Part shown: positions 902-52,177 of the stretch, piece after piece
Position numbering within the stretch: the first letter of the stretch is position 1
Layout of the letters: every line of letters begins with the position of its first letter
DNA from: an uncultured Bacteroidaceae bacterium
Lineage (GTDB): Bacteria > Bacteroidota > Bacteroidia > Bacteroidales > Bacteroidaceae
NCBI GenBank assembly: GCA_905233765.1
Contig: CAJOCU010000005.1
Span: 31,811 to 95,810 of the forward strand
Direction of reading: 5' to 3'
Length of the DNA stretch: 64,000 bases
The notes under the pieces: model-generated
Told to the model about the DNA's origin: nothing
Seen by the model: the letters and a program-made list of their open reading frames with translations, nothing else
Database searches by the model: none
Position numbers and translations under genes: made by a program

Positions 902-2224
902 ATGGAACCGTTGCACCAACATATTGCTTTCCTGTGTGGACATTTTAAGGTCTCTGGGGCCCCTTCTTCGAAGGCGTTGCAGGGTCTGGGATGGGAGAGG
1001 TTCAATCTCCCGGAGAACGTGAGAAGGATAGAGAAAAGGTTTTTCTATCCAGAATACGTGGATTTCTGCTATGCTGATGCCTCGGGCAAGAGTTGCACCA
1101 GGTATGTGAAGCATGTTGACGAGGAGTTGGAGATCAGCGTAAAGGAGAAGGTCATCCGTTTTGGTGTGAAGGAGATCACGCTCTATCTGATGCCATTTAG
1201 GATGGCGATGTTCTCGATTCATATTGAGCAGACGACGAACGACTTGGACGACTGTACGGCGTTGCTTTTCAGCCTTCGCTCCATTGACTATTACACGGAA
1301 GCGCACGGTGCGTTTGTGGAGAAGGCGATACGACCATTCATGGACGTGTTCGAAGTCCTGACGGGTGCGAAGGCGATGAGCTACTCGGAGCTGATAGACA
1401 ATGGTAACAAGTTGCGTATCTTTCAGATTGTCAATACGATGGATGCGGACATGGCGGCATGGACAGAGGCAGATAAGGACAAGGTGCTGTATGAGTTGGC
1501 GACAGTGTCGAAGATCACGAGGCCTGGGGAGGTGGATGACTACAGCGCTTCGGCGGCATATCTGGAGAAGATCATAGAGCGCAGTAAGATCTCGGTGTTC
1601 CGTAACTGGAGTGGTCTGGCGTTAATGGACACGTTTACGATTCATGCTTTTGGTGTGTCTGTGAGGTTTGTCAATAACTGGGTTGACAGTTACTTCAGGA
1701 TGATTTATATCCATAGTATTTTCCAGAAGAGTTATCTGTTCAACCTGAATATACGTTTCCGGAACTCTTTGGCTCGCTCGTCGGCTTCGTGGAAGTCGAA
1801 GCTTCGAAACCTGCATATACAAGGAACGAACGTTGGTCAGTTGGTGGAGGAGTATGAATCGTTTGAGCAGAAGTGCTGTTTTCACAAGATTTCCTATAAT
1901 TTCCTGCCGCTGGAAATTGCCGCCAGCATTGACAAGGGGCTGGAGATTCAGGAGGAGATGGCGCAGCTATACAAGATGATGGAGAAAGAGAAGACCCGCC
2001 GCGACGAGGCTAACGACAAGATGGTGAACACGCTGCTGTTCAGTCTCTCGTTGCTGACGCTCTTCTCGGCCATTTGGGATATCAGTTGTCTGTTGGACCA
2101 GATGTATCCTTTTGCCGAGTATTTGGGCGGTCAGCCGTTGGGCTATCGGACCGTTGCATTGTTGTTGTTGTTGGGCGTCAGTGTCCTGCTGCTGGTTATC
2201 TATCGGAGGAAGCGGGTGGAGTGA
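902..2224 (+). CDS. hypothetical membrane protein with a soluble N-domain, a helical stalk and two C-terminal TM helices (CorA-like topology, no GMN motif)
   Basis: Taken from ORF 776..2224, with the start moved to MEPLHQH at 902 because the promoter box lies inside the longer ORF. The C-terminus reads NTLLFSLSLLTLFSAIWDISCLL, loop, TVALLLLLGVSVLLLVIYRRKR. It converges on the NRPS 3-prime end and overlaps it by 29 nt. Confidence 0.6.
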   Translation: MEPLHQHIAFLCGHFKVSGAPSSKALQGLGWERFNLPENVRRIEKRFFYPEYVDFCYADASGKSCTRYVKHVDEELEISVKEKVIRFGVKEITLYLMPFRMAMFSIHIEQTTNDLDDCTALLFSLRSIDYYTEAHGAFVEKAIRPFMDVFEVLTGAKAMSYSELIDNGNKLRIFQIVNTMDADMAAWTEADKDKVLYELATVSKITRPGEVDDYSASAAYLEKIIERSKISVFRNWSGLALMDTFTIHAFGVSVRFVNNWVDSYFRMIYIHSIFQKSYLFNLNIRFRNSLARSSASWKSKLRNLHIQGTNVGQLVEEYESFEQKCCFHKISYNFLPLEIAASIDKGLEIQEEMAQLYKMMEKEKTRRDEANDKMVNTLLFSLSLLTLFSAIWDISCLLDQMYPFAEYLGGQPLGYRTVALLLLLGVSVLLLVIYRRKRVE

Positions 2225-5200: not shown

Positions 5201-8200
5201 TGGCCTGTTCGGTGAAGAGGTTGGCAAAGGTCTTACTAATGTCGATGTCGATTTCCTTTCCCGTACCTATTTTAATAATGCGCTGGGCCTCCTCGTCGCT
5301 GACAATGCTAATACTGGTCAAGGCTGCATCGGGCTTTGCTATCATCCGTTCTACCGTCACCTTCACGGCATCTGCGAGACTCTGCATCAAACGGGCAGAG
5401 TATTTTCCGTTGTCATATTCTACACAGACACATGCCTGACCATTGATGTCGCGGATGAAGAAAGTGATGGGGAACTTGGGTACTTGAAGTTCCAGACCTT
5501 CTATCTCCAAGGGTGTACCCTGACAGACGTATTGGCTGATCATGCCCAATTGATAAACAAGCTGAATCTCAGCCGTCAAACCGTAGTCGGCAGCAATCTG
5601 TGCAAACGGATAGTTCTCGTGGCGAAGGGTCTCGTCGAAGTTTTCGCTGACCTCCTGCAGGAACTCCTTCACACTTTGTTTTCCGATAGTAGCACTCAGA
5701 GCCAGCGTATTGACAAACATGCCCACGGTGTTGCGGATGTGTAGGTTGGAGCGACCGCTTGAGACGGTGGTAATGCAGACCTGCTCGTTGTTGGCAAATC
5801 GCGACAAAGAATAGTAAATGGCCGACAGAATCAAATGGGCCGGCGTGATATGGTTGCCACGACAGAAGGCATCGATAGCCTCGAAATCAAGAGAAGAGAT
5901 GGCTTTGCCGATTGTTCCCTTCGAGGGGTTCGGCAGGTCTGGACGCACCTCCGTAGCGGTTTCTACTACGGACAGCCGTTCTTTAAAGAAATCCTTGGCA
6001 GCCTGATAGTCTGCCCCACCTTCTGCAACTTTTTCGGCTGTCACATAGGCCGCATAATTCTGGTCTTCATCCTCAATGGAATAACCATTGAGCACACTGC
6101 ATAGCTGCTGGAGGAAGATATCAACAGAACCACCATCGAATATCAGGTGGTGCACATCCATCATCAGATAGGTCTGCCGTTCTGTAGTTACTATCTCAAA
6201 ACGATAGAGCGGACCCTTGTTGAGGTCGAAAGGACGTACAAAGTCGTGCTTATATGATGACAACTCCTCCTCGCTCATCTGCTTCACAGGAATCTCCACA
6301 GCCTGCTCCAAATCAACGGTCTGTACGATGCCCTCGTCTCCGTTACCGAAGTGAGCGGTCATCTCAGGATGCACCTTCACAAGCGTCCTGAGGGCCTCTG
6401 CCAATTGGGCAGTATCCGTTTGCTGCGGGAAAGCAATCTTGTTAGGAATGTTATAGAGCGTAGTCTCCGGATTCTTCAAACAGTCGAAATAGACACCTGT
6501 CTGGGCGTAGGACAGGGGGACAGCCTCACCCCCATCCCCTCTCCAGTAGAGGGGCGTAGATAGATTCTGTTCTTGAGAGTGACCACTCCCCTCGCCCTTT
6601 GTGAGGTTTCTCCATATCTCATTTTCAATGCTCTGCAGGGTGCCGCTTTTGACAAGAGACTTTGAATCTAATGTCACGCCATAGCGCTTATTCACCTGAA
6701 TGGCCAATTTAATGGCTGAGATAGAGGTGAGTCCGGCATAGCCCAAAACAGTTGTGATGCCGAAATCCGTGTTTCCAACGATGGCCGCAATCATCTCATG
6801 CAGTTCCTGCTCGAGGACGTTTAAGGGAGCCTGCTCGGTTTGTTGCGATGACATCGCAACAGACTTGACGGGTTTCGGCAGGGCGCGTTTGTTCACCTTC
6901 TGGTTTTGGTTCAATGGAATCTTGTCAATCTGCATCGTCACTGCAGGCACCATGTAGGGCGGTTTCTGATCAAGGATAAAGCTATTTAAAGCTTCGGTGT
7001 CCACCTGTTGGTCGCTGACGATATAGGCCGCAATGAACTTGCCGCCATTCTCGTCATCGAAGGCCTGCACCGTGGCATCCTTGATGCCGGGAAACTCGCG
7101 AATGACAGCTTCCACCTCCTTCAGCTCAATGCGGAAACCGCGAATCTTCACCTGGCCATCCCTGCGGCCGATGAACTGCAGGTTGCCGTCGGGCAGCCAG
7201 CGCACGATGTCGCCAGTCTTATATACCCGAGCATATTTTTCATTGTCTGTAAAGGGATTCTGAATAAACACTTCTGCGTTCTTGTCCGGTCGGTTCAGGT
7301 ATCCGAGTGCCACTTGCGGTCCGGCTACCCACATTTCACCCATAGCCCCCACAGGCAGACGACGTCCCTGTTGATCGACTACATAAAGCCGCACATTGTC
7401 CAAAGGTTTGCCAATGGGGACATCCGTATCTTTCTTTGTGATAGGATAGACAGTGATGATGATGGTGGCCTCCGTAGGACCATAGCCGTTGTGCAACTGA
7501 TAGCCTTGAGGCGGAGCGATACTGGCCAGTTTCTCGCCAGCCACCGAGAGATGCATCAAGGAGTGATTCTCAATGTTCGTTGCAAACTGATAGCCCACCT
7601 GTGTAGTCATGAAGGTATGGGTGATGTGTTCGCGCTCCAGGTATTCGTTGAGCGACACAAGATCCAGGCGCAGTTCCTCAGGGATGATGTGCACGGTGGC
7701 ACCGCGCGTCAGTGGCGGATAGATACCCTCCTGATGGACATCGAAACCATAGCTGGCATATTCAGCCACATTATGCTCTGGCTTTAGGTCGTAATATTTC
7801 CAGTACCAGTTGCAGTAGCATACCAGATTGGCATGTGTCAGTTGGCAACCTTTGGGAATGCCTGTCGAGCCGGAGGTATAAAGGAGGATAAAAAGAGAGT
7901 CGGGTTTCGGTTCCGTAGGCTGCGACAGAGTCGCAGCTAACGAAAGCAGGTCCTTGGTCAGCAGCACTTCGCCCTGATATTCGTCAACGAGGTCACGCAA
8001 CTCCTCGTCGGCAATGAGCAACTTCGCGCCGGCATCTTTCATCATGAAGTTCAGGCGTTCCTTCGGATAGCTGGGATCCAGCGGCTGATAGGCACAGCCA
8101 GCCTTCAGCACGCCGAGTGAGGCAATAGCCATCCACTCGCAGCGAGGAATGATGACAGAAACGGCATCGCCCACGCCCAGTCCTTTGGATACGATATAGC

Positions 8201-9614
8201 CTGCAATGCGGTCGCTGATGTCATCTACCTCGGCATAGGTGTAACGATGGTCCTTGAAAACGACGGCTTCGGCATCTGGTGTGGCCTTGGCCTGCCGGCG
8301 GAACAGCGACACCACCGTCTGGGTGTCATCATAGGGACGGTCTGTATCGTTGAACGAGTCGAGAAGCTCCACCTGCGAAGCTGTGGTAATATTGATGTCG
8401 CTCAGTTTTTCTTCACTGAGGAACCCCGCTACCACCGCCTCATAGCTTTCCATCAACTGGGTGATAAGCAACTCGCTATACATATTGGCGCTGTATTCTG
8501 CCTCCACACAATAATGGCCGTCCTTCGTGTATGCCTTCAGATAGAGCGGCATCTCGCGGGTGTTGTTGTTCAGACGTCGGGCTGTCATCGGCTTGCCGCA
8601 TAGTTCCAGACTATCGAACAGGGGTCCGTGCCAGACAAAGAGTGTGGCAGCCTGCAGTCCCAAGTCTGCGGCTACGTCAGCGTATGCGTAGGCCTCGTGC
8701 TGGCGCTGCCCCATCATTTGCCGCTCCCCAGCCCTCAGGAAGTCGAGCACGGTGGTGTCGTTGTCAAACTTCGTATAGACGGGCAATGTTCTTACCAACA
8801 TGGCTACCGAGTGGGCCAGACGCTTATCGGCTCGCCCATTGTGTATCGTGTTGAACAGCACCTGCTGCTCGTTGTTGTATTTCGCCAGCAGAAAGCTGTA
8901 GGCTGCCGTGAAGAAAGTGCTCTTAAAGATGTCGTGCTCCTTGCAATAGGCTTCGACAGCATCGATGGCTACATTCATCGTCCGCGTCAGCAGACCCTCT
9001 TGAGGCTCTTCTCCGTCCAAATCGGGCAGCAACGGTGAATAGCAGTCGCCGCAATCGAAGTTTTCTGCATACCATTTTTTGTCCTCCTCAAAGGCCGGAC
9101 TCTCGCGCTGCGCAGCCTCAGCCTGGGCTACCTCGGCCAAAGTCAATGCCTCGGCCTCTAACGTTTCGCCACGATAGGCTTTCTCGATGTCGGCCAGCAG
9201 CACCTTTCTCGATGTGCCGTCGCTGATGATATGGTGGATGTCCTGCAGCAGATAATAGTGCGCAGCATCCTTTAGCAGACGGATTCGGAACAAACGGTCA
9301 TGATACAGGTCGAAGGGCTTGACGAAACTGTCGATGGTCATCTGTGGGTTGTCAACGGTCTCGACCTCGAGACTGAATGTCTCGCTATCGCAGATGGTTT
9401 GCACGGCATCGCCCTGCTCGTTCAACTCGATGCGCGTAAACAGCGTCGGGTGGGCCTTCACGGCAGCCTCGATGGCCGCCGTCAGTTTTTCCTCGTCCAA
9501 ACTGGCGTCTAAGATGTAAACATAGGGTATGTTATAACAAGCCTCTCCCTGGTGGTTGACACATTCCACGTAGAGACCATACTGCGTTTTAGTTAATGGC
9601 GCGGAAATCTTCAT
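2196..9614 (-). CDS. bimodular non-ribosomal peptide synthetase, domain order C-A-T-C-A-T-R (terminal thioester reductase)
   Basis: 2472 aa ORF. C1 motif HHIISDG is at about 9216-9236. A1 core LLYTSGSTGIPKG is at about 7858-7896, and A1 also has NGYGPTE and KVNKRALP. T1 reads LGYAGLTSISAIKL at about 6720. C2 motif HHLIFDGGS is at about 6131-6157. A2 core MIYTSGSTGKPKG is at about 4741-4775, and A2 also has NVYGPTE and NGKINRKALP. T2 reads FFEIGGTSINAIKV at about 3600. The R domain has LLTGATGYLGIHIL at about 3301-3340 and YSKYKAEE. No TE domain is present. Confidence 0.95.
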   Translation of the reverse strand: MKISAPLTKTQYGLYVECVNHQGEACYNIPYVYILDASLDEEKLTAAIEAAVKAHPTLFTRIELNEQGDAVQTICDSETFSLEVETVDNPQMTIDSFVKPFDLYHDRLFRIRLLKDAAHYYLLQDIHHIISDGTSRKVLLADIEKAYRGETLEAEALTLAEVAQAEAAQRESPAFEEDKKWYAENFDCGDCYSPLLPDLDGEEPQEGLLTRTMNVAIDAVEAYCKEHDIFKSTFFTAAYSFLLAKYNNEQQVLFNTIHNGRADKRLAHSVAMLVRTLPVYTKFDNDTTVLDFLRAGERQMMGQRQHEAYAYADVAADLGLQAATLFVWHGPLFDSLELCGKPMTARRLNNNTREMPLYLKAYTKDGHYCVEAEYSANMYSELLITQLMESYEAVVAGFLSEEKLSDINITTASQVELLDSFNDTDRPYDDTQTVVSLFRRQAKATPDAEAVVFKDHRYTYAEVDDISDRIAGYIVSKGLGVGDAVSVIIPRCEWMAIASLGVLKAGCAYQPLDPSYPKERLNFMMKDAGAKLLIADEELRDLVDEYQGEVLLTKDLLSLAATLSQPTEPKPDSLFILLYTSGSTGIPKGCQLTHANLVCYCNWYWKYYDLKPEHNVAEYASYGFDVHQEGIYPPLTRGATVHIIPEELRLDLVSLNEYLEREHITHTFMTTQVGYQFATNIENHSLMHLSVAGEKLASIAPPQGYQLHNGYGPTEATIIITVYPITKKDTDVPIGKPLDNVRLYVVDQQGRRLPVGAMGEMWVAGPQVALGYLNRPDKNAEVFIQNPFTDNEKYARVYKTGDIVRWLPDGNLQFIGRRDGQVKIRGFRIELKEVEAVIREFPGIKDATVQAFDDENGGKFIAAYIVSDQQVDTEALNSFILDQKPPYMVPAVTMQIDKIPLNQNQKVNKRALPKPVKSVAMSSQQTEQAPLNVLEQELHEMIAAIVGNTDFGITTVLGYAGLTSISAIKLAIQVNKRYGVTLDSKSLVKSGTLQSIENEIWRNLTKGEGSGHSQEQNLSTPLYWRGDGGEAVPLSYAQTGVYFDCLKNPETTLYNIPNKIAFPQQTDTAQLAEALRTLVKVHPEMTAHFGNGDEGIVQTVDLEQAVEIPVKQMSEEELSSYKHDFVRPFDLNKGPLYRFEIVTTERQTYLMMDVHHLIFDGGSVDIFLQQLCSVLNGYSIEDEDQNYAAYVTAEKVAEGGADYQAAKDFFKERLSVVETATEVRPDLPNPSKGTIGKAISSLDFEAIDAFCRGNHITPAHLILSAIYYSLSRFANNEQVCITTVSSGRSNLHIRNTVGMFVNTLALSATIGKQSVKEFLQEVSENFDETLRHENYPFAQIAADYGLTAEIQLVYQLGMISQYVCQGTPLEIEGLELQVPKFPITFFIRDINGQACVCVEYDNGKYSARLMQSLADAVKVTVERMIAKPDAALTSISIVSDEEAQRIIKIGTGKEIDIDISKTFANLFTEQAKRTPDAPAVVDRDSQLTYAEMDNYSNALAHQLIDFGVQPNDFVCVMLDRFKEFPLAVLSIHKAGAAYTPLDFEYPNERLSYMLENSESKVLITTHAVLEAKQAEGDFSTAAARTFFIDDFMASAVGGLPADTPLDLSSPDGLAYMIYTSGSTGKPKGAMLHQAGLRNFIAVVIDMEKLTAADRISGHRSFSFDAHIEDMYPVLTLGGSFHVMPTEIRKDLAQIRQFLIDHQCTGGGYSTAMTSLLLNAFDDLPIRFTTGGGEKMDGVYSDHIEIINVYGPTECTDDTSYYAIAPGRRVENIPIGQSVANNWNFIVDTAGNLVPQGVAGELCFAGIQVGRGYWRLPERTATSFVDCPFVKEDRWGRPVRMYHTGDLCRWNDEGQLEYLGRIDTQVKLRGFRIELGEIENKALNIEGIRQAAAEVRKVQGNEHLVLYYTVSDGSAIGDEDICTALKASSLADYMVPDVYMKMEVMPMTPNGKINRKALPVPEMKRATEYEAPKGEMEELFCTIFSDVLKIQEVGATDNFFEIGGTSINAIKVIVEASKHGVQIVFNDLFNLKTPKALAAFVRAPLSSPEGDTIQMSSDNATIEAPSGAVGGAPSILTKNTLSSFHNGKRQPIGDVLLTGATGYLGIHILNELLTNYEGHILCPIRAKGDEEATSRLKTMYFYYFGKTEAFQHFGERITAFAAEVTQPNALDNAPLPNRGGGGGGALTVINCVANVKHFSAGNDIEMVNIESVRHLITFCLRTGSRLIHISTNSIAGISVDNVPGPEVKLTEQLLDIGQNIDANKYVYSKYKAEELVLDAIANHGLNAKIMRVGNLSARQKDGEFQINFNTNNFLAKLRAYVVIGMVPYEALDQRFEFSPIDEVAHAIMLLAQTPKECMVFHPSNTHRQFLSDILTGFSEAGITLKRVENEEYQQALEKMMENPDLVTLLRPLMAYDMGIGHKTRWIEADNEYTTQVLYRLGFQWPTTAADYVHRFVDTIVGFDFFTPPASSDR
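3063..3101. repeat. GC-rich palindromic unit, in-frame inside the NRPS reductase domain (encodes PLPNRGGGGGGA)
   Basis: ggccccacccccgccccctcccctgttagggaggggagc. A C-rich arm, a GTTA loop and a G-rich arm. It aligns with the units at 50622, 43471(rc), 6519 and 43400. Confidence 0.7.
3401..3493. repeat. 93 bp MITE-like composite with ~28 bp terminal inverted repeats, in-frame in the NRPS T2-R linker
   Basis: The left end is gagccccccccacggcccccgagggggc. The reverse complement of the right end is gagcccccctgtcgtcccccgagggggac, about 24 of 28 identical. The core is a 36 bp AT-richer stretch. 93 nt equals 31 codons (APLSSPEGDTIQMSSDNATIEAPSGAVGGAPS). Confidence 0.7.
6511..6606. repeat. GC-rich repeat unit(s), in-frame in the NRPS T1-C2 linker
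   Basis: 6519 gacagcctcacccccatcccctctccagtagaggggcg aligns with the family. A second partial C-rich unit, ccactcccctcgccctttgtgagg, is at 6583-6606. Together they encode LTKGEGSGHSQEQNLSTPLYWRGDGGEA. Confidence 0.55.
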
Positions 9615-41701: not shown

Positions 41702-42103
41702 TTATAACGACTCCAAACGAACTCGCATCTGTAGGATGTCCTGGACATTGCTGATGATGCTGATTAGACCAAAAGACATCAGTAATGAGAGGGCTGTGGC
41801 TGTTAGGAGACGGGAATTCTCTGCCAGACAGAGCAGGAAGCCTGTTTGAACTTGGAAGGTGAAAAGGGGCACATCGGCAGGTGTTGAAAGCACGTATACA
41901 ATAGACACTGCGCCACTGACGATGCCCACTACGAAGGCTGCCACCATCAGCATCTTGTAGCGACGGATGGTTGCTTCCTGATGCTGCTTGATGAACTCTA
42001 CAGCATCAAGACGCTTGGTAAGCGCTGCCATAAAGTCGGCATTGTCCGAGAACTGCGGTTTCTGAGCGAGGAAGAGTTCCTCAAGGGCTTTATCTTTTTC
42101 CAT
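41702..42103 (-). CDS. small membrane protein downstream of an ECF sigma factor (anti-sigma-like)
   Basis: MEKDKALEELFLAQKPQFSDNADFMAAL followed by two TM segments. It lies 3 nt downstream of the sigma gene. Confidence 0.5.
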   Translation of the reverse strand: MEKDKALEELFLAQKPQFSDNADFMAALTKRLDAVEFIKQHQEATIRRYKMLMVAAFVVGIVSGAVSIVYVLSTPADVPLFTFQVQTGFLLCLAENSRLLTATALSLLMSFGLISIISNVQDILQMRVRLESL

Positions 42104-42124
42104 ATCCAATTCAAGTCTCAAGTT

Positions 42125-42619
42125 TTAAGATTCAATTTTCAATTGCTCTCTGAGTCTGTCGCGTCCTCGTGAGAGTTGCTTCTTGACGGCATCTTCCGAG
42201 GCATCAGTGATCTTGGCTATCTCCTTGATGTTATAGCCATTGAGGTAGAAAAGCGTGATAGCTGATCGTTCCTTGGGCGGCAGGGCGCGCAGGGCCAGAT
42301 AGAGGTCTTGGTGCTCGAAAGTGGAAGACCCCTCTTCGTCTCTCCCGAGGGGGAGGGATTGAATCCGTGGGTCATCGATGCTCTCCATCGTCCGTTGGCC
42401 TGCCCGATGATTTAGGAAAGTGTTGTGAGCAATCTTGAAGAGCCACGAACGGAAGCGTCCTTTGTCCTGATAGCCAGCCGACGAGAGATAAGCCTTCACC
42501 AGCGCGTCTTGCGCCAGGTCGTCGGCATCGCTTTGGTTGCCGCAGCAGAGGGCGAGCAAGAAGCCTCTCAGTGCCTCCTGCTCACGCTCCACATGTGCTA
42601 TGAATTCTTCGCGAGTCAC
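42125..42619 (-). CDS. ECF (sigma-70 family group 4) RNA polymerase sigma factor
   Basis: Region 2 reads DADDLAQDALVKAY...FRSWLFKIAHN. Region 4 reads ALPPKERSAITLFYLNGYNIKEIAKITDASEDAVKKQLSRGR. GTG start. A GC-rich repeat unit sits in the region 2-4 linker. Confidence 0.85.
   Translation of the reverse strand: MTREEFIAHVEREQEALRGFLLALCCGNQSDADDLAQDALVKAYLSSAGYQDKGRFRSWLFKIAHNTFLNHRAGQRTMESIDDPRIQSLPLGRDEEGSSTFEHQDLYLALRALPPKERSAITLFYLNGYNIKEIAKITDASEDAVKKQLSRGRDRLREQLKIES
42324..42360. repeat. GC-rich palindromic unit, in-frame in the ECF sigma region 2-4 linker (encodes SLPLGRDEEGSS)
   Basis: gaagacccctcttcgtctctcccgagggggagggatt. It shares the gaagaccc terminus and the arm-loop-arm layout with 43400 and 43578. 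Confidence 0.65.
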
Positions 42620-42622
42620 GGG

Positions 42623-43084
42623 TTATGCCTGCTCCGACTGTTTCGCTTGTTCAGCCTCTATCTCCTTGGCCAACAACATCTTTCCTACAAAGTAATTGAC
42701 AAGGAAGGCGATGCCGATAGCCAATAGCGGGAAGCCTATTAAACTGCACATTATAAGCATTTCAGTAGGTGCTCCGCCTACTATACCTGCACAAGCACAG
42801 AATGCTAAAATACTAAGCCCTAAGAAACCCATGAGACATCCCCACAGCAGTTTCGTGAGCAGTTTTTCCTTCAGCAGTTTCTTCTGGGGAGCCATTTTCT
42901 TGAGTAAATCCTCAATGTCTGTCTCTGCATTTTTCTCAATGGCAGCCAGCACAATCTGTGTGCGTTGGCTTGTCTCGTTGATTTTCTTGCGATTATCTAG
43001 CCATACGATTAAGATGGGAAGCCCAATACCACAAATGATAGCAATGATCTTAACGATCGACTCCATTAAAACAACGTAATTCAT
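42623..43084 (-). CDS. small multi-TM membrane protein
   Basis: 153 aa. It has an N-terminal TM, a charged helix, then two or three further TM segments, and sits between the two ECF modules. Confidence 0.55.
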   Translation of the reverse strand: MNYVVLMESIVKIIAIICGIGLPILIVWLDNRKKINETSQRTQIVLAAIEKNAETDIEDLLKKMAPQKKLLKEKLLTKLLWGCLMGFLGLSILAFCACAGIVGGAPTEMLIMCSLIGFPLLAIGIAFLVNYFVGKMLLAKEIEAEQAKQSEQA

Positions 43085-43248
43085 AGTTTTGTTTATTTAT
43101 TGGTTTATACTTTTGTTTTCTTGACCTGGTCACTAATATAACAAGTCAGAAAGACAAAAGGTGACATTCCAATCGTATTTTCTTTCTCAAAAGCATCTGC
43201 AAAGATAGAACTTTATTGTAAAGTAGCTGAGCAATATTAACTGGCGCG

Positions 43249-43719
43249 TCAGTTGCCGGCCAGCAAATCATAGCGTATCTCATCGCAGAGCATGGAGCAG
43301 CCAGGGGAGGGGGCCGGTTCGGCCTGTGCGGTTTGTAGTTGCGATGTGGGGACTGGAACTCGGACGATGCGGGTCTCGTAAATGGTGTCGTGGATGACTG
43401 AAGACCCACCCTCCTGTCCCTCCCGTGAAGGGAGGGATGTCTCGCTACGCTCAATAGCTGCGCGCAGCATCTCCCCTCCATCACGGGAGGGGTCGGAGGT
43501 GGGGCTTCCTATTCCCTTTCCCACAAAGAATCCTACCACCAGTGCAGCTGCGACAGCGCCCCACCATAGCGGAGTGGGAAAAGACCCTCTCCCCGCTCCC
43601 CCGTGAGGGGGGAGAACCTTGCTTCGCTCGAAGGGGCTGGGCGCCACGTTGAGTTGTTCGTTTTGCTCGTCGCGAAGGTCGCGGGCGGCGGAGATGATAT
43701 CAGAATCTTGAAGCTTCAT
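43249..43719 (-). CDS. single-pass membrane protein downstream of an ECF sigma factor (anti-sigma-like), about one quarter of it made of repeat units
   Basis: 156 aa with the TM segment LWWGAVAAALVVGFFVG. It carries three GC-rich units. Confidence 0.5.
   Translation of the reverse strand: MKLQDSDIISAARDLRDEQNEQLNVAPSPFERSKVLPPHGGAGRGSFPTPLWWGAVAAALVVGFFVGKGIGSPTSDPSRDGGEMLRAAIERSETSLPSREGQEGGSSVIHDTIYETRIVRVPVPTSQLQTAQAEPAPSPGCSMLCDEIRYDLLAGN
43400..43508. repeat. ~109 bp MITE-like composite: two GC-rich units in inverted orientation (~40 bp TIRs) flanking a 31 bp core, in-frame
   Basis: The left end is gaagacccaccctcctgtccctcccgtgaagggagggatg. The reverse complement of the right end is gaagccccacctccgacccctcccgtgatggaggggagatg. 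The two are clearly alignable along their whole length. Confidence 0.7.
43578..43617. repeat. GC-rich palindromic unit, in-frame (encodes VLPPHGGAGRGSF)
   Basis: gaaaagaccctctccccgctcccccgtgaggggggagaac. Nearly identical to the reverse complement of 50687-50720 (cctctccccgctcccccataagggggaggg). Confidence 0.7.
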
Positions 43720-43743
43720 AATCTGTAATTCAAAAATAAAACG

Positions 43744-44325
43744 TTAAACGTTAAACGAGATTTCTTTATACTCTTTCAACTGCCTCCGTATGAGTTGCAT
43801 CGTCTTGTGCAATCGGCTCTTGACAGTCCCCATGGGTATTTCGAGGATGACGGCTATCTGCGGCACAGTGAGCTCTTCCTCGTAGCGGAGGGAGAAAAGG
43901 AGGCGCAAAGGTGCTGGGAGATTGTCGAGTACGGCAGCAAGGGTGCGCTTCAGCGTCTCACGATCCATCTCCACTTCGATGTTTTCTGTGGTCATTGGCT
44001 CTGCATCTATGGTGGCGAGGAAATAGGCTTCGTAGGCATTGCGGCGATAACGGTTACGGCAGAGGTTGTAGGCGATGGTGAACAGCCAGGTGGCGAAGTC
44101 GCGCCCTTTGACATAGCGGTCACGAGCTTCGAAGAGGCGAAGGAAGGTGTCGTGCGTGGCATCTGCCGCTGCATCTTCATCGCCGCCCAGCTGGCGGAAG
44201 AAGAAACCTTGCAGCCGACGGGCATAGCGGCGATAAAGTTCATCGAAGGCCGCATCACTGCCAGCGCCGACGCGCAGCATCAGCTGCTCGTCGGACTGAC
44301 TTGAAAGAAGGAATCGTCTCAGCAT
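43744..44325 (-). CDS. ECF (sigma-70 family group 4) RNA polymerase sigma factor
   Basis: Contains AFDELYRRYARRLQGFF, FATWLFTIAYNLCRN and NLPAPLRLLFSLRYEEELTVPQIAVILEIPMGTVKSRLHK. Confidence 0.85.
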   Translation of the reverse strand: MLRRFLLSSQSDEQLMLRVGAGSDAAFDELYRRYARRLQGFFFRQLGGDEDAAADATHDTFLRLFEARDRYVKGRDFATWLFTIAYNLCRNRYRRNAYEAYFLATIDAEPMTTENIEVEMDRETLKRTLAAVLDNLPAPLRLLFSLRYEEELTVPQIAVILEIPMGTVKSRLHKTMQLIRRQLKEYKEISFNV

Positions 44326-44328
44326 GAC

Positions 44329-45492
44329 TTATTCGTCTCGTGTCAACAACTGCAAAATCTCCTGTTTTCGTTCTTCACTGAGTGACGTATTTGTCACACC
44401 ACTTATCAATCGATTTATCAACCAATCATAGCGCTTTTCGTCATGTCTGGCATAATAAGGCAGTAGATCCGCTAACACCACAGCGTAATTGGCAGACAGC
44501 CGCTGTCCGGCAGTCCAATCGGGGCGGAACGACACGAGCAGGTACTCCAGCATATAGCGTTCCTCTACGTTGCGACGCTTCACTGCCATATTATCGTAGG
44601 ACTTCTTGCTATATTTCAGCGTCAACCCTTCATTGTAGAGGTGCTCTTCCCAGGGCTTCATCGTCTCTGAAGGCGTAGTGGAGGAGAAATACACCTTGCT
44701 GCCATATTTGTCAATGATGACTTGTAAAAGCGCCTGCTCATATTCGTTATATGAACCATAGTCACCCTCTTCCCATGATGGCAATGCAACACCCAGCTTC
44801 TTGGACAGCCATTCCCGATACTCTTTCACAGCCAGGAACGACACACATACCACTGTCTTGTCGCAATGCTTTTTCATACCTTCCTGGATAAGCCATTTGG
44901 GGATGATGGCAGCGTCGCCACTGGCGAAGATGATGCCGCCGGAGTCCATTCCTGCCAGTTCATTGTAGTTGTAGCGCAGCACGGCTTCAGAATAGATGCC
45001 GCTGTCGAAGTATCGTTTGGCCAGCTGTGCCATTCGAGCCACGTCGCCTTTCATAGCTAAGTAGCACACCCATCGGTCGTAGTCGAAGAACTCCATCTCA
45101 TCAGGCAACTTCGCCAGCGCCGCCTCGGCATAGCGATCGCCGTCGGTTCCTCCAGTGCCATGGCCACCAACAATGGCGCTGTAGGCACAATAGTTATAAG
45201 TGTAGCTATCTGGAATGGCTTGGCTCATCTCACGGATGACCTGCCGGACTGATGTATCTTCGGGTTGGAACCAGAGCATGTAACGTGCTGCGTGGTAATA
45301 GTTCAACCAGGCCCATTCATCATCGGGACTCTTACGGGTTGCCTCCTGCCAGGCATTCTTCTGTTCCACGTACCATACGAAGTCCTTCTCCGTTACAATC
45401 GGACTTTCCACCTTTACAGCCTTCGTCTGTGCCCATACCCCAAGGGTAAGAGCCAATCCAGCGAGGCTCGAGATGATTCTATTTGCTTTCAT
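44329..45492 (-). CDS. hypothetical secreted protein
   Basis: From ORF 44329..45669, with the start set at the signal peptide MKANRIISSLAGLALTLGVWAQ. Its stop lies 3 nt upstream of the ECF sigma start. No family recognised. Confidence 0.6.
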   Translation of the reverse strand: MKANRIISSLAGLALTLGVWAQTKAVKVESPIVTEKDFVWYVEQKNAWQEATRKSPDDEWAWLNYYHAARYMLWFQPEDTSVRQVIREMSQAIPDSYTYNYCAYSAIVGGHGTGGTDGDRYAEAALAKLPDEMEFFDYDRWVCYLAMKGDVARMAQLAKRYFDSGIYSEAVLRYNYNELAGMDSGGIIFASGDAAIIPKWLIQEGMKKHCDKTVVCVSFLAVKEYREWLSKKLGVALPSWEEGDYGSYNEYEQALLQVIIDKYGSKVYFSSTTPSETMKPWEEHLYNEGLTLKYSKKSYDNMAVKRRNVEERYMLEYLLVSFRPDWTAGQRLSANYAVVLADLLPYYARHDEKRYDWLINRLISGVTNTSLSEERKQEILQLLTRDE

Positions 45493-45773
45493 TGTCTTAA
45501 TGATTCCGTTTTTTAGTATTACTGTTTTGGAAAGCAGCATGACGTCGTTTGCCTTTCTACTACAGCATACACACGAAAACGGAAACCGTTCACGGAAATC
45601 ACCACAAAAGTACACTCTTTTCCAGAGAAAACGCCAACCTTTACGTAACTTCTTTCCCCAATACTGCATTTTTCCCCTCTTTCCCTCCTCATCCTTCTTT
45701 TTTCTACATTTTATGATTATGATTTAGAGAATTGTTGCACACTTGCAGACAGAAACCAAGAGGATTAAGAATC

Positions 45774-47848: not shown

Positions 47849-49339
47849 CTACGGTTGTTTCTTGGGGATGCGCTTTGTCACGCCGATGGCACCCGCCGGG
47901 CATACCAGGCGGCAGAGGTGACACCCGACGCATTTGGTGCCCACGATGCGGGGCTGGCGGGTCTCATGATTGAAGACGATGGCCTGATGACCGCCGTCGT
48001 TGCATGAGATTTCACAGCGCCCGCAGCCTACGCACAGTTCGCGGTTGATCTTGGGATAGATGATGGAGCCGCGATCCAGATTATCCGGCTTGAGGAATGA
48101 TGGCAGCTGCTCGCCCACGAGCTCTTCTAAGCGGGTGATGCCGTGCTTGGCCATATAGCGTTGCAGGCCCAGTTGCAGGTCGTCGATGATGCGGTAGCCA
48201 TATTGCATGACGGCAGTGCAGACTTGCACGTTGCTGCAGCCCAGCTGGATGAATTCCAGGGCATCGCACCAGGTCTCGATGCCGCCGATGCCGCTGAGCG
48301 CTAATCTTGGATTTTCAACATTGCCCTTTATACCGCAGTCCACCTCTGACAGTTCCAGGATATGGCGCAGGGCGATGGGACGGACGGCACGGCCGGAGTA
48401 GCCGGAAACGGCGCGATGGCCAGCAACCTCGGCATCTTCGTCCATCGTTACGGACTTGATGGTGTTGATGGCTGAAATGGCATCAGCACCCGCCTCCACA
48501 CATGCCTGGGCAGGCTCTGCGATGTGGGTGATGTTGGGGGTCATCTTGGAAATGACAGGGATATGGACACTACGCTTGACACAGGCGGTGAAGGCCCTCA
48601 CCAGTTCGGGACTTTGGCCTACGTCGCTGCCCATCCCCTTGTGTGTCATCTGCGGACATGAGAAGTTCAGTTCCACGGCGTCGCAACCTGCCGCCTCGGC
48701 CTTCTTGGCGAGCGCTATCCACTCCTCTTCGGTCTGTCCCATGATGGAGGCCACCACGACCTTGGTGGGGTAGTCTTGTTTCAGGCGGCGCAGGATGTCG
48801 AAGTCCATATCCAAGGGGTTCTCGCTCAGCTGTTCCATGTTGCGGAAACCGTAGAAGTCGCCGTGGGTAGCGTTGCTGTGTATGGCATCGAAGCGGGGCG
48901 ACACCTCCTTGATTTCCTGCAGGCAGATGGTCTTGTAAAAGACTCCTGCCCAACCGGCTTCGAAGGCTTTGGCCACCATCTCATAGTTGGTGCACACGGC
49001 AGATGAGGCGAGGAAAAACGGATTCTCGCAGGGGATGCCGCAGAACGTGATGTCGAGGGTGGGATAGTGGCTGTCGTCCACGTCGTCCTCATGGATGCTG
49101 CGCAGCACCTCCTTGATTCGGATGGGCCAGTTGTAGTGGATGCAGGCCTGCTCAGCCCGTTCCAGATCGGCGTCGGTACAGTTCTTCACCCAGCGCAAAG
49201 CTGGCTTGTGGTTGACAAAGCGGATGGCGCGGATGGCCCGTGCCGGGTCGCCAGTCTGGCAGGCTTGTGTGCAGGGAGCGTCCTGACACAACAGGCAGCG
49301 GCTGGCTTCTTCATAGATGTTTACTTTTCGGTTGGTCAT
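47849..49339 (-). CDS. dihydropyrimidine/dihydroorotate dehydrogenase-family flavoprotein with N- and C-terminal Fe-S cluster motifs (PreA-like)
   Basis: The start is set at MTNRKVNIYEE (ATG at 49339). It contains CLLCQDAPCTQAC, ENPFFLASS, and the C-terminal ferredoxin motifs CVGCGRCEISC and CVGCHLCRLVCP. Confidence 0.8.
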   Translation of the reverse strand: MTNRKVNIYEEASRCLLCQDAPCTQACQTGDPARAIRAIRFVNHKPALRWVKNCTDADLERAEQACIHYNWPIRIKEVLRSIHEDDVDDSHYPTLDITFCGIPCENPFFLASSAVCTNYEMVAKAFEAGWAGVFYKTICLQEIKEVSPRFDAIHSNATHGDFYGFRNMEQLSENPLDMDFDILRRLKQDYPTKVVVASIMGQTEEEWIALAKKAEAAGCDAVELNFSCPQMTHKGMGSDVGQSPELVRAFTACVKRSVHIPVISKMTPNITHIAEPAQACVEAGADAISAINTIKSVTMDEDAEVAGHRAVSGYSGRAVRPIALRHILELSEVDCGIKGNVENPRLALSGIGGIETWCDALEFIQLGCSNVQVCTAVMQYGYRIIDDLQLGLQRYMAKHGITRLEELVGEQLPSFLKPDNLDRGSIIYPKINRELCVGCGRCEISCNDGGHQAIVFNHETRQPRIVGTKCVGCHLCRLVCPAGAIGVTKRIPKKQP

Positions 49340-49374
49340 AGGTCTTAAAGGTGTTAGTGTTTTTAAATATGTTC

Positions 49375-50376
49375 CTAGTCGTTGATAGCTCCGCAGTAGG
49401 GGCAGACACCCTTCTGCTGCAGGCGTTGGTGGCAGCGTCCGCAGAGGTAGCGCGGACGTGCATATACGATATATCGGTAGAGGGCAAAGACGATGTAGGC
49501 GATGGTGAGGATGGCGGTCAGGAAGAGCGGCGTGAGGGAGATGACGAGGTAAGCAATCATGCACACGGCCAAGAGGGCCAGCAGGTAGAGGATGGCAGCA
49601 CCGGTAGGCAGCATCTTCATGACATCATCGATGACGACGAGGGTGAGCAGGAACAAAGCCCAAACGGCACAGAGGAACAGGCACAGCAGGAGAGGCTGCG
49701 AAAAAGGTGTGAGCGTGGGATGGTAGTAGAACTGCACCCACATTTGAGGATAGCTGTGCTGGATGAGGGCATAGAGCCATGCGGTGGCAGTGAGGGTGAC
49801 GACCAAAAGGGTGGGGTAGATGCTGGGGATGTCGTCGAGATGAATCATTCGGAAGCGTTTCCGGCGAAGGATATGCACCAGGGCGAAGGCTGCTGCGACA
49901 GCCATCACGATGAGGAACCACAAGACGTGGCCGTCGGAGAAGAAATGAATGAATTGGCTGATGGGGTCGTCGGGTGTGGTTGCTTGCAGAAGGTCGTTCT
50001 CATGGAGCCAGCCCATCGTCTCTTGATCACGTGCCACCTTAATCCAGACGCTATCGACAGAATCCTCGGGAATGGTGGTGATGGCTGCGATGACGAGCTG
50101 GTTGTGCTTCATAATCCAGATACTGTCGCTACTTTCGGCAACGCCTCCGCTCCAGTGCATGGGCCGATCCTCAACAAGCAGGAGACTATCGGCGTGCACT
50201 AACAAGTTGTAGCCCACGCCGTAGGGACGGCTGAGGCGCTGGGCGGTGCTGTCGGTATCAGGGGAGTCGATGATGATGTGCTGGGGTGGAGCGTAGCAGG
50301 AGGAGAACATTATCACTGCTGCGATAATGAATGAAAAATGAAAAGTGAAGAGTGAAAAATGAAATATTCTTTTCAT
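49375..50376 (-). CDS. lipoprotein-like multi-pass membrane protein with a C-terminal zinc-ribbon (CGRC...CPYCG)
   Basis: The start is set at MKRIFHFSLFTFHFSFIIAAVIMFSSC. There are five or six TM segments. The signal peptide is encoded by a heptamer array. Confidence 0.6.
   Translation of the reverse strand: MKRIFHFSLFTFHFSFIIAAVIMFSSCYAPPQHIIIDSPDTDSTAQRLSRPYGVGYNLLVHADSLLLVEDRPMHWSGGVAESSDSIWIMKHNQLVIAAITTIPEDSVDSVWIKVARDQETMGWLHENDLLQATTPDDPISQFIHFFSDGHVLWFLIVMAVAAAFALVHILRRKRFRMIHLDDIPSIYPTLLVVTLTATAWLYALIQHSYPQMWVQFYYHPTLTPFSQPLLLCLFLCAVWALFLLTLVVIDDVMKMLPTGAAILYLLALLAVCMIAYLVISLTPLFLTAILTIAYIVFALYRYIVYARPRYLCGRCHQRLQQKGVCPYCGAIND
50331..50365. repeat. tandem heptanucleotide array (5 units, RTGAARA) encoding a signal peptide
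   Basis: atgaaaa atgaaaa gtgaaga gtgaaaa atgaaat. The coding strand gives FHFSLFTFHFSF. Confidence 0.65.
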
Positions 50377-50398
50377 AGCGGATAATGCTCTTGAACTC

Positions 50399-52177
50399 TT
50401 AAACCCTTGCGCTTGAGCTTGCTCGCTTCGCTTGCGAAGAACACTTTGAATCTTCTCCGGCCAATACGTGCATCTCACAGCGGCGGCAGTCGAAGCGTAG
50501 GGGGAAGGTGCGGCCGTCGGCCAGGCGCAGGCGCAGGGGCTCGCGGAAGGGGAGGCCCCGCCCGTCGCGCGTGCAGTAACCGAGGGCATGGCGGAGGCAG
50601 TAGCGGCAGGTCATGAGAGGAGACTCACCCCCGGCCCCTTCCGTTAGGGAGGGGGAGAGGCTGGCGCACAGCTCATGAGCGGTAGCGAAACCCTCCCCCT
50701 TATGGGGGAGCGGGGAGAGGATATTCTCTGACACCACCTCTCTCCTCCATTCTCCCAGCACAGAGGCAGGAATGAACCAGTTGTCGGAAAGTTGGATTTC
50801 AATGTCTGCTTCGGTGCAGGTATAGGGTGTGTCGCCGAGGCGCATGAGTTGGCGACGGATATTGTCGGCCTGTGGGGTGCGAGCTAGTTCGTGAGGGTAG
50901 GAGAATGAAGAATGAAGAGTGAAGAATGACGAATGCAGGGTGAGGCGGAAGCCGTCGTCAGTGTCTTCAAGGAGCCAGCGGACGGGGATGCGACGGTCGG
51001 CAGTGGGTCGAGCAAGCTGTCGCTCGAAATCAGCATCGAGATTGCGATAGAGAGGTCCCCCTTTAGGCAATTGCGCAAGGATGGAAGGGTCGGTGGGGAA
51101 GATGCGTCCCTGCTCATCCACGCGGTTCACGCGGAAGCCCTGCAGACGGCCTTCGGCATCGAAGAAGCAGAGGCCGTCGCCATTATGAATAGCGGCCCCA
51201 CCCTCGGTGAGCTTTTCTCCAATGGACTTCGGCGTGGCGAAGTTGGCCATATCGCGTGCGCGACCGTGCAAGAAGTAATCGGTGAAACCGCGGTTAAAGC
51301 TCTTCTGAAGGTCGGGAGTAAAGGTAATGGCTGAGGTGCCGTAGGAGGCGCGGGAATAGTCGTCGGGACGTCGCGCGATGATTTCATCAATACGCTGACG
51401 GTAGTAGGCCGTGGTGTTCTTGACGTAGGCGACATCCTTCAGGCGTCCCTCGATTTTGAAACTGCTGACGCCGGCATCCATCATGGCTTCGAGGTCGGCG
51501 GCGCGGTTCATGTCGCGGAGCGAGAGGAGATGGCGCTGCTTTTCCAAAACCTTCCCATCGGCATCGATGAGGTCGAAGGGGAGGCGGCAGAACTGGGCGC
51601 ATTCTCCGCGGTTGGCGCTGCGTCCGAAGCAGTACTCGCTGGCATAGCAGCGTCCGCTGTAGCTGACGCAGAGGGCACCATGTATGAAGGCTTCAAGGGG
51701 CATCTCGGGCACCGCCTCGTGGATGGCGCGGATATCATCCAGGGAGAGCTCGCGGGCCAGAACGGTCTGTTCGTAGCCAGCCTCGGCACGCGCACGAACA
51801 TCGTCAATCGTGCGGTTGTCCATCTGTGTGGAGCTGTGCAGGGGTAGAGGAGTTGAGAGCTGAGAGTTGAGAGTTGGGAGTTGAGGGTCTTGGACAATCA
51901 ATGCATCCACGCTTATGGCAGCAAGGTCGTTGATGAGGGCTTGGGCCGCTGGGAGCTCCTCATTGTAAAGTAGGGTGTTGACCGTCACATAGATTTTCAC
52001 TCCGTAAGGATGGGCATAATGCACGAGCTCGGCAATGTCCTCTACGCTGTTGCCTGCTGCGGCGCGGGCACCAAAGCGTGGAGCACCAATATAGACAGCA
52101 TCGGCGCCGTGACGAATGGCCTCGATGCCACACTCCAGGTTGCGGGCTGGAGCAAGAAGCTCAATGGATCTCTTCAA
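50399..52177 (-). CDS. peptidase U32 family protein (extended, 592 aa)
   Basis: Contains ELLAPARNLECGIEAIRHGADAVYIGAP, LHSSTQM and CYASEYCFGRSANRGECAQFCR. TTG start in the track. It carries two GC-rich units and two heptamer arrays. Confidence 0.85.
   Translation of the reverse strand: MKRSIELLAPARNLECGIEAIRHGADAVYIGAPRFGARAAAGNSVEDIAELVHYAHPYGVKIYVTVNTLLYNEELPAAQALINDLAAISVDALIVQDPQLPTLNSQLSTPLPLHSSTQMDNRTIDDVRARAEAGYEQTVLARELSLDDIRAIHEAVPEMPLEAFIHGALCVSYSGRCYASEYCFGRSANRGECAQFCRLPFDLIDADGKVLEKQRHLLSLRDMNRAADLEAMMDAGVSSFKIEGRLKDVAYVKNTTAYYRQRIDEIIARRPDDYSRASYGTSAITFTPDLQKSFNRGFTDYFLHGRARDMANFATPKSIGEKLTEGGAAIHNGDGLCFFDAEGRLQGFRVNRVDEQGRIFPTDPSILAQLPKGGPLYRNLDADFERQLARPTADRRIPVRWLLEDTDDGFRLTLHSSFFTLHSSFSYPHELARTPQADNIRRQLMRLGDTPYTCTEADIEIQLSDNWFIPASVLGEWRREVVSENILSPLPHKGEGFATAHELCASLSPSLTEGAGGESPLMTCRYCLRHALGYCTRDGRGLPFREPLRLRLADGRTFPLRFDCRRCEMHVLAGEDSKCSSQAKRASSSARV
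50622..50720. repeat. 99 bp composite of two GC-rich units in opposite orientation flanking a 26 bp core, in-frame in the U32 peptidase
   Basis: 50622 is gactcacccccggccccttccgttagggagggggagagg and 50687 is gaaaccctcccccttatgggggagcggggagagg. Together they encode ENILSPLPHKGEGFATAHELCASLSPSLTEGAGGES. Confidence 0.7.
50891..50946. repeat. tandem heptanucleotide array (8 units, RTGARGA) inside the U32 peptidase gene
   Basis: gtgaggg taggaga atgaaga atgaaga gtgaaga atgacga atgcagg gtgaggc. The coding strand gives TLHSSFFTLHSSFSYP, a 7-aa peptide repeat. Confidence 0.65.
51853..51887. repeat. tandem heptanucleotide array (5 units, YTGAGAG) inside the U32 peptidase gene
   Basis: ttgagag ctgagag ttgagag ttgggag ttgaggg. 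The coding strand gives PQLPTLNSQLST. Confidence 0.6.

Follow-up and report, generated by a model that had tools for sequence, protein, structure and literature searches.

The Rickettsia palindromic elements (RPEs) were reportedly described by Ogata et al. in 2000. They are palindromic repeats that lie in frame within many unrelated genes, where they are translated with the host protein at positions compatible with its fold (PMC10969869, PMC3184786). Repetitive extragenic palindromic sequences (REPs) are by definition extragenic, are lineage-specific and carry GTAG or CGTC tags (PMC3733652, PMC3116915), and the motif whalefall-1 (RF01762) has been described as a non-coding RNA known only from whale-fall metagenomes (PMC2864571). 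Here we analysed a stretch of 64,000 nucleotides from an uncultured Bacteroidaceae bacterium (NCBI GenBank assembly GCA_905233765.1, contig CAJOCU010000005.1, positions 31,811 to 95,810 of the forward strand), hereafter the window, in which the gene for a small membrane protein, directly downstream of an extracytoplasmic function (ECF) sigma factor gene, carries a composite of two inverted hairpin units and a third, solo unit. We conclude that the composite and the solo unit are in-frame copies, themselves without an open reading frame (ORF), of a dispersed hairpin repeat, and that they are probably carried as tolerated passengers in a disordered linker of the protein.

The composite consists of units A and B around a short core, which we call type 1, and unit C lies apart from it (Table 1). 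All sequences quoted in the original prediction for this gene are found where it placed them, its translations of the units and of the composite are correct, and so is its total length of 109 nt for the composite; the core, given there as 31 bp, measures 28 nt once the prediction's own arms of 40 and 41 nt are applied. Units A, B and C can be aligned with one another and all three are in frame within the minus-strand ORF. The two arms had been said to match over their full length at roughly 85%. Unit A and the reverse complement of unit B agree at 32 of 42 aligned columns (76% identity), which is lower than claimed yet far beyond chance: the alignment scores 18, where shuffled sequences average -8.1 and reach at most 5. 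Each of the three units has a hairpin of its own, of the form CCCTCCC-GTGA-GGGAGGG, and a search with the hairpin 19-mer matched only at the host-gene locus, with 0 matches expected. The whole composite folds into a single long hairpin, both as the mRNA strand (-73.6 kcal/mol, z = -7.7) and as DNA (-36.7 kcal/mol, z = -6.6), and the stretches of the predicted host protein that it codes include SPTSDPSR and SLPSREGQEGGSS. Units contribute 42 codons to the host gene, where the earlier estimate was about 40 of 156, and the count rises to ~51/156 with the core included. A further GC palindrome that had been pointed out near the 3' end of the gene is present; we take it to be a chance occurrence, because the palindrome is not kept at the DNA level among orthologues.

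Table 1. Positions of the hairpin units, composites and host genes in the 64,000-nt window.
Feature	Position	Strand	Description
Unit A	43400-43439	+	Arm of composite; read antisense by the host gene as TSLPSREGQEGGSS, aa 94-107
Type-1 core	43440-43467		28 nt, between units A and B; codes LRAAIERSE
Unit B	43468-43508	-	Arm of composite; read sense by the host gene as GSPTSDPSRDGGEM, aa 71-84
Unit C, solo	43578-43617	+	Insertion of 13 codons, cytoplasmic side of transmembrane helix; read as VLPPHGGAGRGSF, aa 35-48
Short GC palindrome ggccggttcggcc	43312-43324		5-bp stem; codes conserved AEPAP; outside the element
Host gene	43249-43719	-	156-aa single-pass membrane protein, directly downstream of ECF sigma gene
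ECF sigma gene	43744-44325	-	Upstream of host gene; Sigma70_r2 and r4 domains, TIGR02937
Unit H, solo	42324-42360	+	In frame, linker between regions 2 and 4 of second ECF sigma gene; read as SLPLGRDEEGSS
Second ECF sigma gene	42125-42619	-	Host of unit H
D-E composite (units D, E and core), second type-1 copy	50619-50728	-	In frame, aa 484-520 of U32 peptidase/DUF3656 gene
Core of D-E composite	50659-50688		75% identity to first core, opposite orientation
U32 peptidase/DUF3656 gene	50399-52177	-	D-E composite lies between DUF3656 and C-terminal Cys motif
Unit F, solo	3064-3103	+	In frame, reductase domain of nonribosomal peptide synthetase (NRPS) gene 2196-9614; read as APLPNRGGGGGGA
Truncated type-2 composite (includes unit G)	6522-6606	+	In frame, junction of peptidyl carrier protein (PCP) and condensation domains, NRPS gene
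Unit G	6523-6558		Inside NRPS gene 2196-9614, PCP/condensation junction

The original prediction had raised the possibility that the host ORF is not a real gene. This is contradicted by its relatives: the host protein has 74 database matches, ~70 of which are full-length orthologues (143-181 aa) from Bacteroidaceae and Prevotella-type metagenome assemblies, with conserved ends, and the order of a 446-473-aa gene, the ECF sigma gene and the host gene is kept in 5 independent contigs. An N-terminal helix, a transmembrane (TM) helix and a C-terminal part (IIREVIHEVVHDTIYETRIVRVP...GCSMLCDDIRYDLLAGN) are conserved among these orthologues, and the segment from the TM helix to the conserved C-terminal part is hypervariable. 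AlphaFold2 predicted helices at residues 5-22 and, for the TM helix, 51-69, with low-confidence coil at the unit-coded residues 35-48, 74-82 and 94-106. The elements thus take up the segment next to the membrane and, beyond the TM helix, the variable linker that leads to the conserved C-terminal part, and unit C does lie right before the TM helix, as had been proposed. The protein had also been called anti-sigma-like. Its gene position and topology fit such a role, but it matched no Pfam or NCBIfam family, anti-sigma domains such as zf-HC2, RskA and FecR included, and because of this we use 'anti-sigma-like' as a positional and topological inference only.

We then considered copies elsewhere in the window. 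A scan for hairpins with C/T stems returned 11 clusters, against 2.1 in shuffled sequence, and 8 of the clusters are units of the family, A to H. Searching for the core and the arms, as the original prediction had suggested, turned up a second composite with its core, formed by units D and E within a U32 peptidase gene. D-core-E aligns over its full length with A-core-B (71% identity over 114 columns, core included, in opposite orientation), and for this reason we regard the type-1 composite, core included, as a dispersed repeat; the two copies measure 109 nt (A-B) and 110 nt (D-E). Unit C and unit E are 75% identical. Units D, F and G match the strict generic pattern given below exactly, with 0 such matches expected by chance, and A, B, C, E and H align to generic units as diverged copies. 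The type-1 core itself gave 2 matches in species-representative genomes, both of chance type and without flanking units, in a collection outside which the window's own genome lies; a stricter pattern of the core gave no match in the metagenome collection.

All 8 units lie within minus-strand ORFs and are read in frame, at inter-domain linkers or loops. Units B and E are read in the sense direction and A, C, D, F, G and H in the antisense direction, yielding different peptides, which are rich in Pro/Ser/Gly/Glu/Arg and predicted to be unstructured. Solo units are free of stop codons in 4-6 of 6 frames; in the D-E composite one of the six frames is open, namely the frame in use. The elements would persist within genes because the units are nearly stop-free and the linker tolerates changes in length, and they are probably passengers, selfish or neutral, that play no part in sigma-factor control.

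Orthologous genes without the inserts, which the original prediction had proposed to look for, exist for unit C, unit H and the D-E composite alike. Unit C is confined to the window gene (P0001) and its nearest relative (P0002), all other orthologues reading ...KGRRT-PTPLWW at this site. Unit H is absent from a sigma-gene orthologue with 83% identity, and the D-E composite is absent from U32 orthologues (closest at 66% identity), which have unrelated short linkers instead. At the site of the A-B composite the picture is one of turnover: the DNA of anti-sigma-like orthologues holds other inverted unit pairs, with other and longer cores, at the same linker position. Among 70 orthologues, type 1 occurs once (the window gene), type 2 in 31, type 3 in 9, type 4 in 9 and type 5, which is decayed, in 8, and 12 have no composite or another arrangement. 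Type 2 reads ..GEGSGHLQELAEAQSSEITTPSLTGREGE and type 3 reads ..REGAITL..PSLIGRAGGES. A tree of the conserved parts of the protein, which at ~110 residues is indicative only, shows the types intermingled; the sisters P0001 (type 1) and P0002 (type 2) differ in composite yet share the derived unit C; and P0065 and P0027 carry chimaeric composites. The truncated type-2 composite in the NRPS gene, moreover, has a core start in common with the composites of two anti-sigma-like orthologues (L001 and L005). Because types interleave, sisters differ, chimaeras occur and the type-2 core recurs in the NRPS gene, we conclude that the anti-sigma-like linker has been hit or converted repeatedly. Cores have probably been swapped between copies by gene conversion, with the conserved arms serving as homology.

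Two side observations concern the same gene family. In the closest relative, an additional unit (L001 593-613) is intergenic, between the ECF sigma and anti-sigma-like genes. Most orthologues also have a short internal duplication, IIREVIHEVVHDTIY, of which the window protein and a few others (P0068, P0069) lack one copy; this difference (aa 105-115, within 43249-43400) is a length polymorphism that adjoins the composite.

The unit measures ~37-40 nt and is laid out as a C-rich tail, 2 nt, a C/T stem, a loop of 3-6 nt, a G/A stem and a final AG. With the strict pattern CACCCCCNNCCCCTYYCN{4,9}GAGGGG we found at least 120 loci in the metagenome collection and at least 120 in the viral collection. 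Among the matches listed, unit-bearing contigs range from 31 to 74% G+C and include phage contigs; a logo of 259 copies reads CC[T/C]CACCCCC NN CCCCTC[T/C]CC loop GG[A/G]GAGGGG AG, with sharp edges; 246 of the 259 copies show T/C covariation between tail and stem, forming two variants; and in contigs below 56% G+C, 46 of 99 unit copies fall within long frames without a stop. The sequence of the tail mirrors that of the 5' stem, and its T/C position covaries with an A-T/G-C pair of the stem, which fits a parallel Hoogsteen (triplex) code or, equally, two clonal subfamilies. BLAST located the unit in cyanobacterial and proteobacterial plasmids, among them those of Pseudanabaena, Planktothrix, Cupriavidus and Klebsiella, and in E. 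coli a 91-nt unit-containing query matched 5426 of 5426 complete genomes, the median genome having it at 15 places. In other genomes, many copies lie between genes. Judged from these sequences, the hairpin unit family is not lineage-specific. Rfam contains no family for the unit, and the window locus gave no hit at E <= 1; searches with the locus and with generic composites returned only sub-threshold hits of microRNA type, an effect of the long hairpin, and sub-threshold whalefall-1.

An indication of what may have spread the units came from loci picked only because they hold a unit. At two of them, inverted unit pairs 370-490 nt apart enclose a small ORF, and in both cases the ORF is a DUF559 protein (Pfam E 1e-37 and 2e-34). 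A profile search of all loci picked in this way found 8 DUF559 ORFs, each of them flanked by units (8/8). For the reverse test, DUF559 genes were collected by tblastn from annotated plasmid and chromid records and 14 were taken with 400-nt flanks; all 14 have unit-type hairpins within ~250 nt, in most cases on either side of the gene and in inverted orientation. Hairpin density is 2.04 per kb around these 14 genes against 0.25-0.30 per kb in controls, which are themselves unit-selected loci; only 23% of their random 1.1-kb windows hold a hairpin. Taking both directions together, the gene flanked by units is DUF559 in all 22 cases. The fold of DUF559 is Vsr-like; against the PDB, DUF559 matches 3HRL, an 'endonuclease-like protein' (8e-33), and weakly 3R3P, a 'mobile intron protein' (6e-4), the latter being the homing endonuclease I-Bth0305I.

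The whole cassette comprises a unit, the DUF559 ORF and an inverted unit (loci L056 3953-4383; L125 ~3380-3830; L033 1-353; L088 2497-3189; L271), and it too is found in frame within genes, namely in metH, in leuS (twice) and in an annotated coding sequence of 1621 aa. The metH cassette splits the activation domain, and one leuS cassette lies between the catalytic and editing domains. At L088 the cassette is fused to ispF, which holds a further in-frame unit, and the target sequence is tandem-duplicated together with one unit. In E. coli K-12 (L272, NC_000913.3 1351040-1351406) a unit lies in the spacer between fabI and ycjD, beside the DUF559 gene ycjD, which belongs to the set gathered for the reverse test.

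Several observations on individual DUF559 loci are recorded here. In E. coli (L272/L266) YcjD ends within a degenerate unit and a fragment of the ycjD 3' end is duplicated downstream; the fabI-ycjD repeat carries no RefSeq annotation. In plasmid records (L260, L263 and L268), DUF559 genes lie between sufB and sufC in Sphingomonas, and in Synechocystis and Picosynechococcus they are next to or within genes of DUF1156 methylase-like type, one of them apparently split by the insert. Two phage loci (L256, L257 ~1500-1830) have a DUF559-like nuclease domain followed by a block like an intein C-terminus (..VYNLTVEDDNSYVV..VVHNC), with no units, which fits a use of this fold as a homing endonuclease inside inteins.

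These associations suggest, with a likelihood that we place a little short of even, that the units are the terminal hairpins of a DUF559 cassette, that the composites are deletion derivatives of it without the ORF, and that both spread by nuclease cleavage and repair copying. DUF559 nuclease would cleave the target, and repair would then copy the element into the break; such a route would also explain the missing target-site duplication. A broader proposal is more tentative, and we would sooner doubt than assert it: that G+C-rich units of this kind, including the repeat at E. coli ycjD, are the ends of an unrecognised mobile cassette that crosses phyla and has the DUF559 nuclease as its only gene, and that the cassette and its ORF-less pairs enter genes in frame, among them the essential genes metH, leuS and ispF, to persist as translated linkers. 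If true, this would amount to an intein-like lifestyle without protein splicing, and the anti-sigma linker in the window would be a recurrent landing site.

Several points weigh against the interpretation of the window elements as mobile passengers and against their link with DUF559. The type-1 composite is known in 2 copies only, and the inserts are not clean in-frame units, since neither 109 nor 110 nt is a multiple of three. No direct repeat, as a target-site duplication would leave, is seen at the outer ends of either composite copy; this is weak evidence, because the linkers cannot be aligned and the junctions are not base-exact. That most orthologues keep an inverted pair at one position could reflect selection for structure. 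The window contains no DUF559 ORF, and because its copies are without an ORF they are tied to the DUF559 cassettes by the common end units only; by eye, no likeness was seen between the composite cores and the subterminal sequence of DUF559 cassettes. None of five distant phage DUF559-like nuclease domains is flanked by units. The association of units with DUF559 is by itself no proof of mobilisation, and the units could instead be preferred landing sites or expression signals of DUF559 genes.

Two known classes of mobile repeat come closest to the passenger reading, and we consider both very unlikely. The first is the MITE (miniature inverted-repeat transposable element), a deletion derivative of an insertion sequence that is moved in trans by a DDE transposase recognising terminal inverted repeats of ~40 bp; the original prediction had seen in the composite a textbook MITE layout, with the arms as its terminal inverted repeats. 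The part of this that stands is that repeated DNA of a mobile type lies in frame in a real gene, and the inverted ends around a core, the length of ~110 nt without an ORF, the two window copies with a common core and the long-hairpin fold all agree with a MITE. The arms, however, are free-standing, self-contained hairpin units with sharp edges of their own, which also occur singly (C, F and H) and belong to a family that crosses phyla. A Pfam scan of ~50 window ORFs showed no transposase, inverted units at other loci enclose a gene for DUF559 and none for a transposase, and the lack of a target-site duplication, for what it is worth, points in the same direction.

In the second, the units would be REPs and the composite a REPIN (a REP doublet forming a hairpin), spread by a REP-associated tyrosine transposase (RAYT, a Y1 HUH transposase) coded elsewhere in the genome. 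This has a similarly slim chance of being correct. It would account for imperfect palindromes of 35-40 nt, for singlets alongside inverted doublets of ~110 nt that fold into one long hairpin, for the lacking target-site duplication and for the many intergenic copies in other genomes. Against this, all 8 window units are intragenic and in frame, the units are nearly identical across phyla, and the 259-copy logo of the matches listed has neither a GTAG nor a CGTC tag, its tail being CC[T/C]CACCCCC and its end AG. The flanked gene, in every case at hand, is DUF559; the window holds no Y1 transposase, and beyond it no systematic RAYT search was made.

An even slimmer prospect is that the elements form a functional structure, either an mRNA hairpin between the TM-coding and C-terminal parts that tunes translation or stability, or an intragenic inverton that recodes the linker. 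The great stability of the hairpin invites the former, as does the fact that most orthologues, despite differences in sequence, have an inverted pair at this linker position; as for the latter, intragenic invertons exist in Bacteroides (PMC10028968), and symmetric inversion within the arms in silico keeps the ORF open, converting EMLRAAIERSET to RDVSLRSIAARSIS. But both composites also occur in unrelated genes, type 1 in that of a U32 peptidase and type 2 in that of an NRPS, and at least 12 orthologues of the host gene have no pair or only decayed remnants of one. The window codes no recombinase or invertase, and a core of 28 nt is very short for site-specific inversion. We therefore consider a regulatory hairpin and a recoding inverton unlikely, because the elements occur in unrelated genes and many orthologues do without them. 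The notion that there is no DNA element at all, only a low-complexity Pro/Gly/Ser/Glu linker under protein selection with palindromes as a by-product of codon choice, agrees with the simple composition and predicted disorder of the segments but is refuted by DNA-level similarity that holds regardless of reading direction, sense and antisense copies giving different peptides, by a core of non-coding type common to two genes in opposite orientations, and by identical units in the intergenic DNA of many organisms.

The neighbourhood of the host gene has features of its own. Two ECF-sigma modules lie head to tail (41702-45669), the first made up of the 446-aa gene, the sigma gene and the anti-sigma-like gene and the second of a DUF6249 membrane protein, a sigma gene and a 139-aa membrane protein, and hairpin units are present in the sigma-associated parts of both. 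Two unrelated proteins, P0073 and P0074, have at their C-terminus the 30-residue tail (AQAEPAPSPGCSMLCDDIRYDLLSGK) that is conserved in the anti-sigma-like family; the N-terminus of one is UPF0102/YraN-like and that of the other is a zinc-ribbon. The tail is either a portable module or a sign of chimeric assemblies. Next to the U32 peptidase gene, a 404-aa ORF without Pfam match (49375-50589) overlaps the 3' end of that gene by 190 nt as well as the start of a DHO_dh/4Fe-4S gene (47849-49564), and is probably not a gene or has a miscalled start. The ClpX protein of the window is 94% identical to a protein of a 'Prevotella sp.' metagenome-assembled genome.

In a limited literature search, which may have missed prior work, we found no description of the unit and no account of Bacteroidota copies in frame, of such turnover within a single linker or of the link with DUF559. 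Most known cases of selfish repeats lying in frame in bacterial genes come from Rickettsia; the element described here is a different one, in a gut or rumen Prevotella-like organism, and its family extends across phyla and to phages. The repeated replacement of elements at one linker offers a natural series for the entry, exchange and decay of such DNA within a gene. The flanking of DUF559 genes by units suggests a testable function for a very widespread domain, E. coli YcjD included, and, for a dispersed repeat of E. coli, an origin that can be tested. In practice, the units create false similarity between unrelated proteins, inflate linker variability and may mislead gene calling and homology searches in metagenomes.

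The E. coli fabI-ycjD repeat has the same architecture as the units, CCCCTCACCC-TAA-CCCTCTCCCC-AGA-GGGGCGAGGGG. Its copies are intergenic as far as annotation shows, whereas the window units are all intragenic, with A, B, C, E and H diverged. We take this repeat to be the one called 'boxC', which was presumably first seen downstream of envM/fabI. The name reportedly goes back to Bergler et al. 1992 and Bachellier et al. 1999. It is not mentioned in PMC3184786 or PMC2759123. The whalefall-1 consensus, a CUCUCC/GGAGAG hairpin followed by AGgGuGAGGAC, corresponds to the generic unit in its G-tail orientation, and a generic unit of L057, with matches at 281-316 and 343-379, scored 22.2 bits against it, under the gathering score of 37; whalefall-1 may be a local variant of the hairpin repeat instead of a dedicated non-coding RNA.

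The cassette ORF shares its predicted nuclease fold with Vsr-like (EDxHD) homing endonucleases such as I-Bth0305I (PDB 3R3P). Like inteins, DUF559 cassettes lie in frame inside essential genes (metH, leuS), and a cycle of invasion and decay, as in homing elements, would be expected to leave remnants without the ORF. The cassettes differ from homing introns and inteins in having no intron or intein (Hint) sequence and in having hairpin units as their ends.

RPEs resemble the window units in lying in frame in unrelated protein genes, in being translated and in having no transposase within the element. They are ~100-150 bp long, AT-rich and confined to Rickettsia, whereas the units are ~37-40 nt long, G+C-rich, single or in inverted pairs, and cross-phylum; RPEs fall into families that, as described, have no sequence relation to the units. 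With REPs and REPINs the units have in common short imperfect palindromes, singlets and inverted doublets, a hairpin of ~100 nt, high repetition, the lack of a target-site duplication and a mobilising gene that can be traced as the gene the repeats flank. REPs and REPINs, in contrast, are extragenic, species-specific and tagged and flank a Y1 (HUH) transposase, and the units are often intragenic, cross-phylum and untagged and flank DUF559. By analogy with these two systems, the element would appear RPE-like in its lifestyle and REP/REPIN-like in its anatomy.

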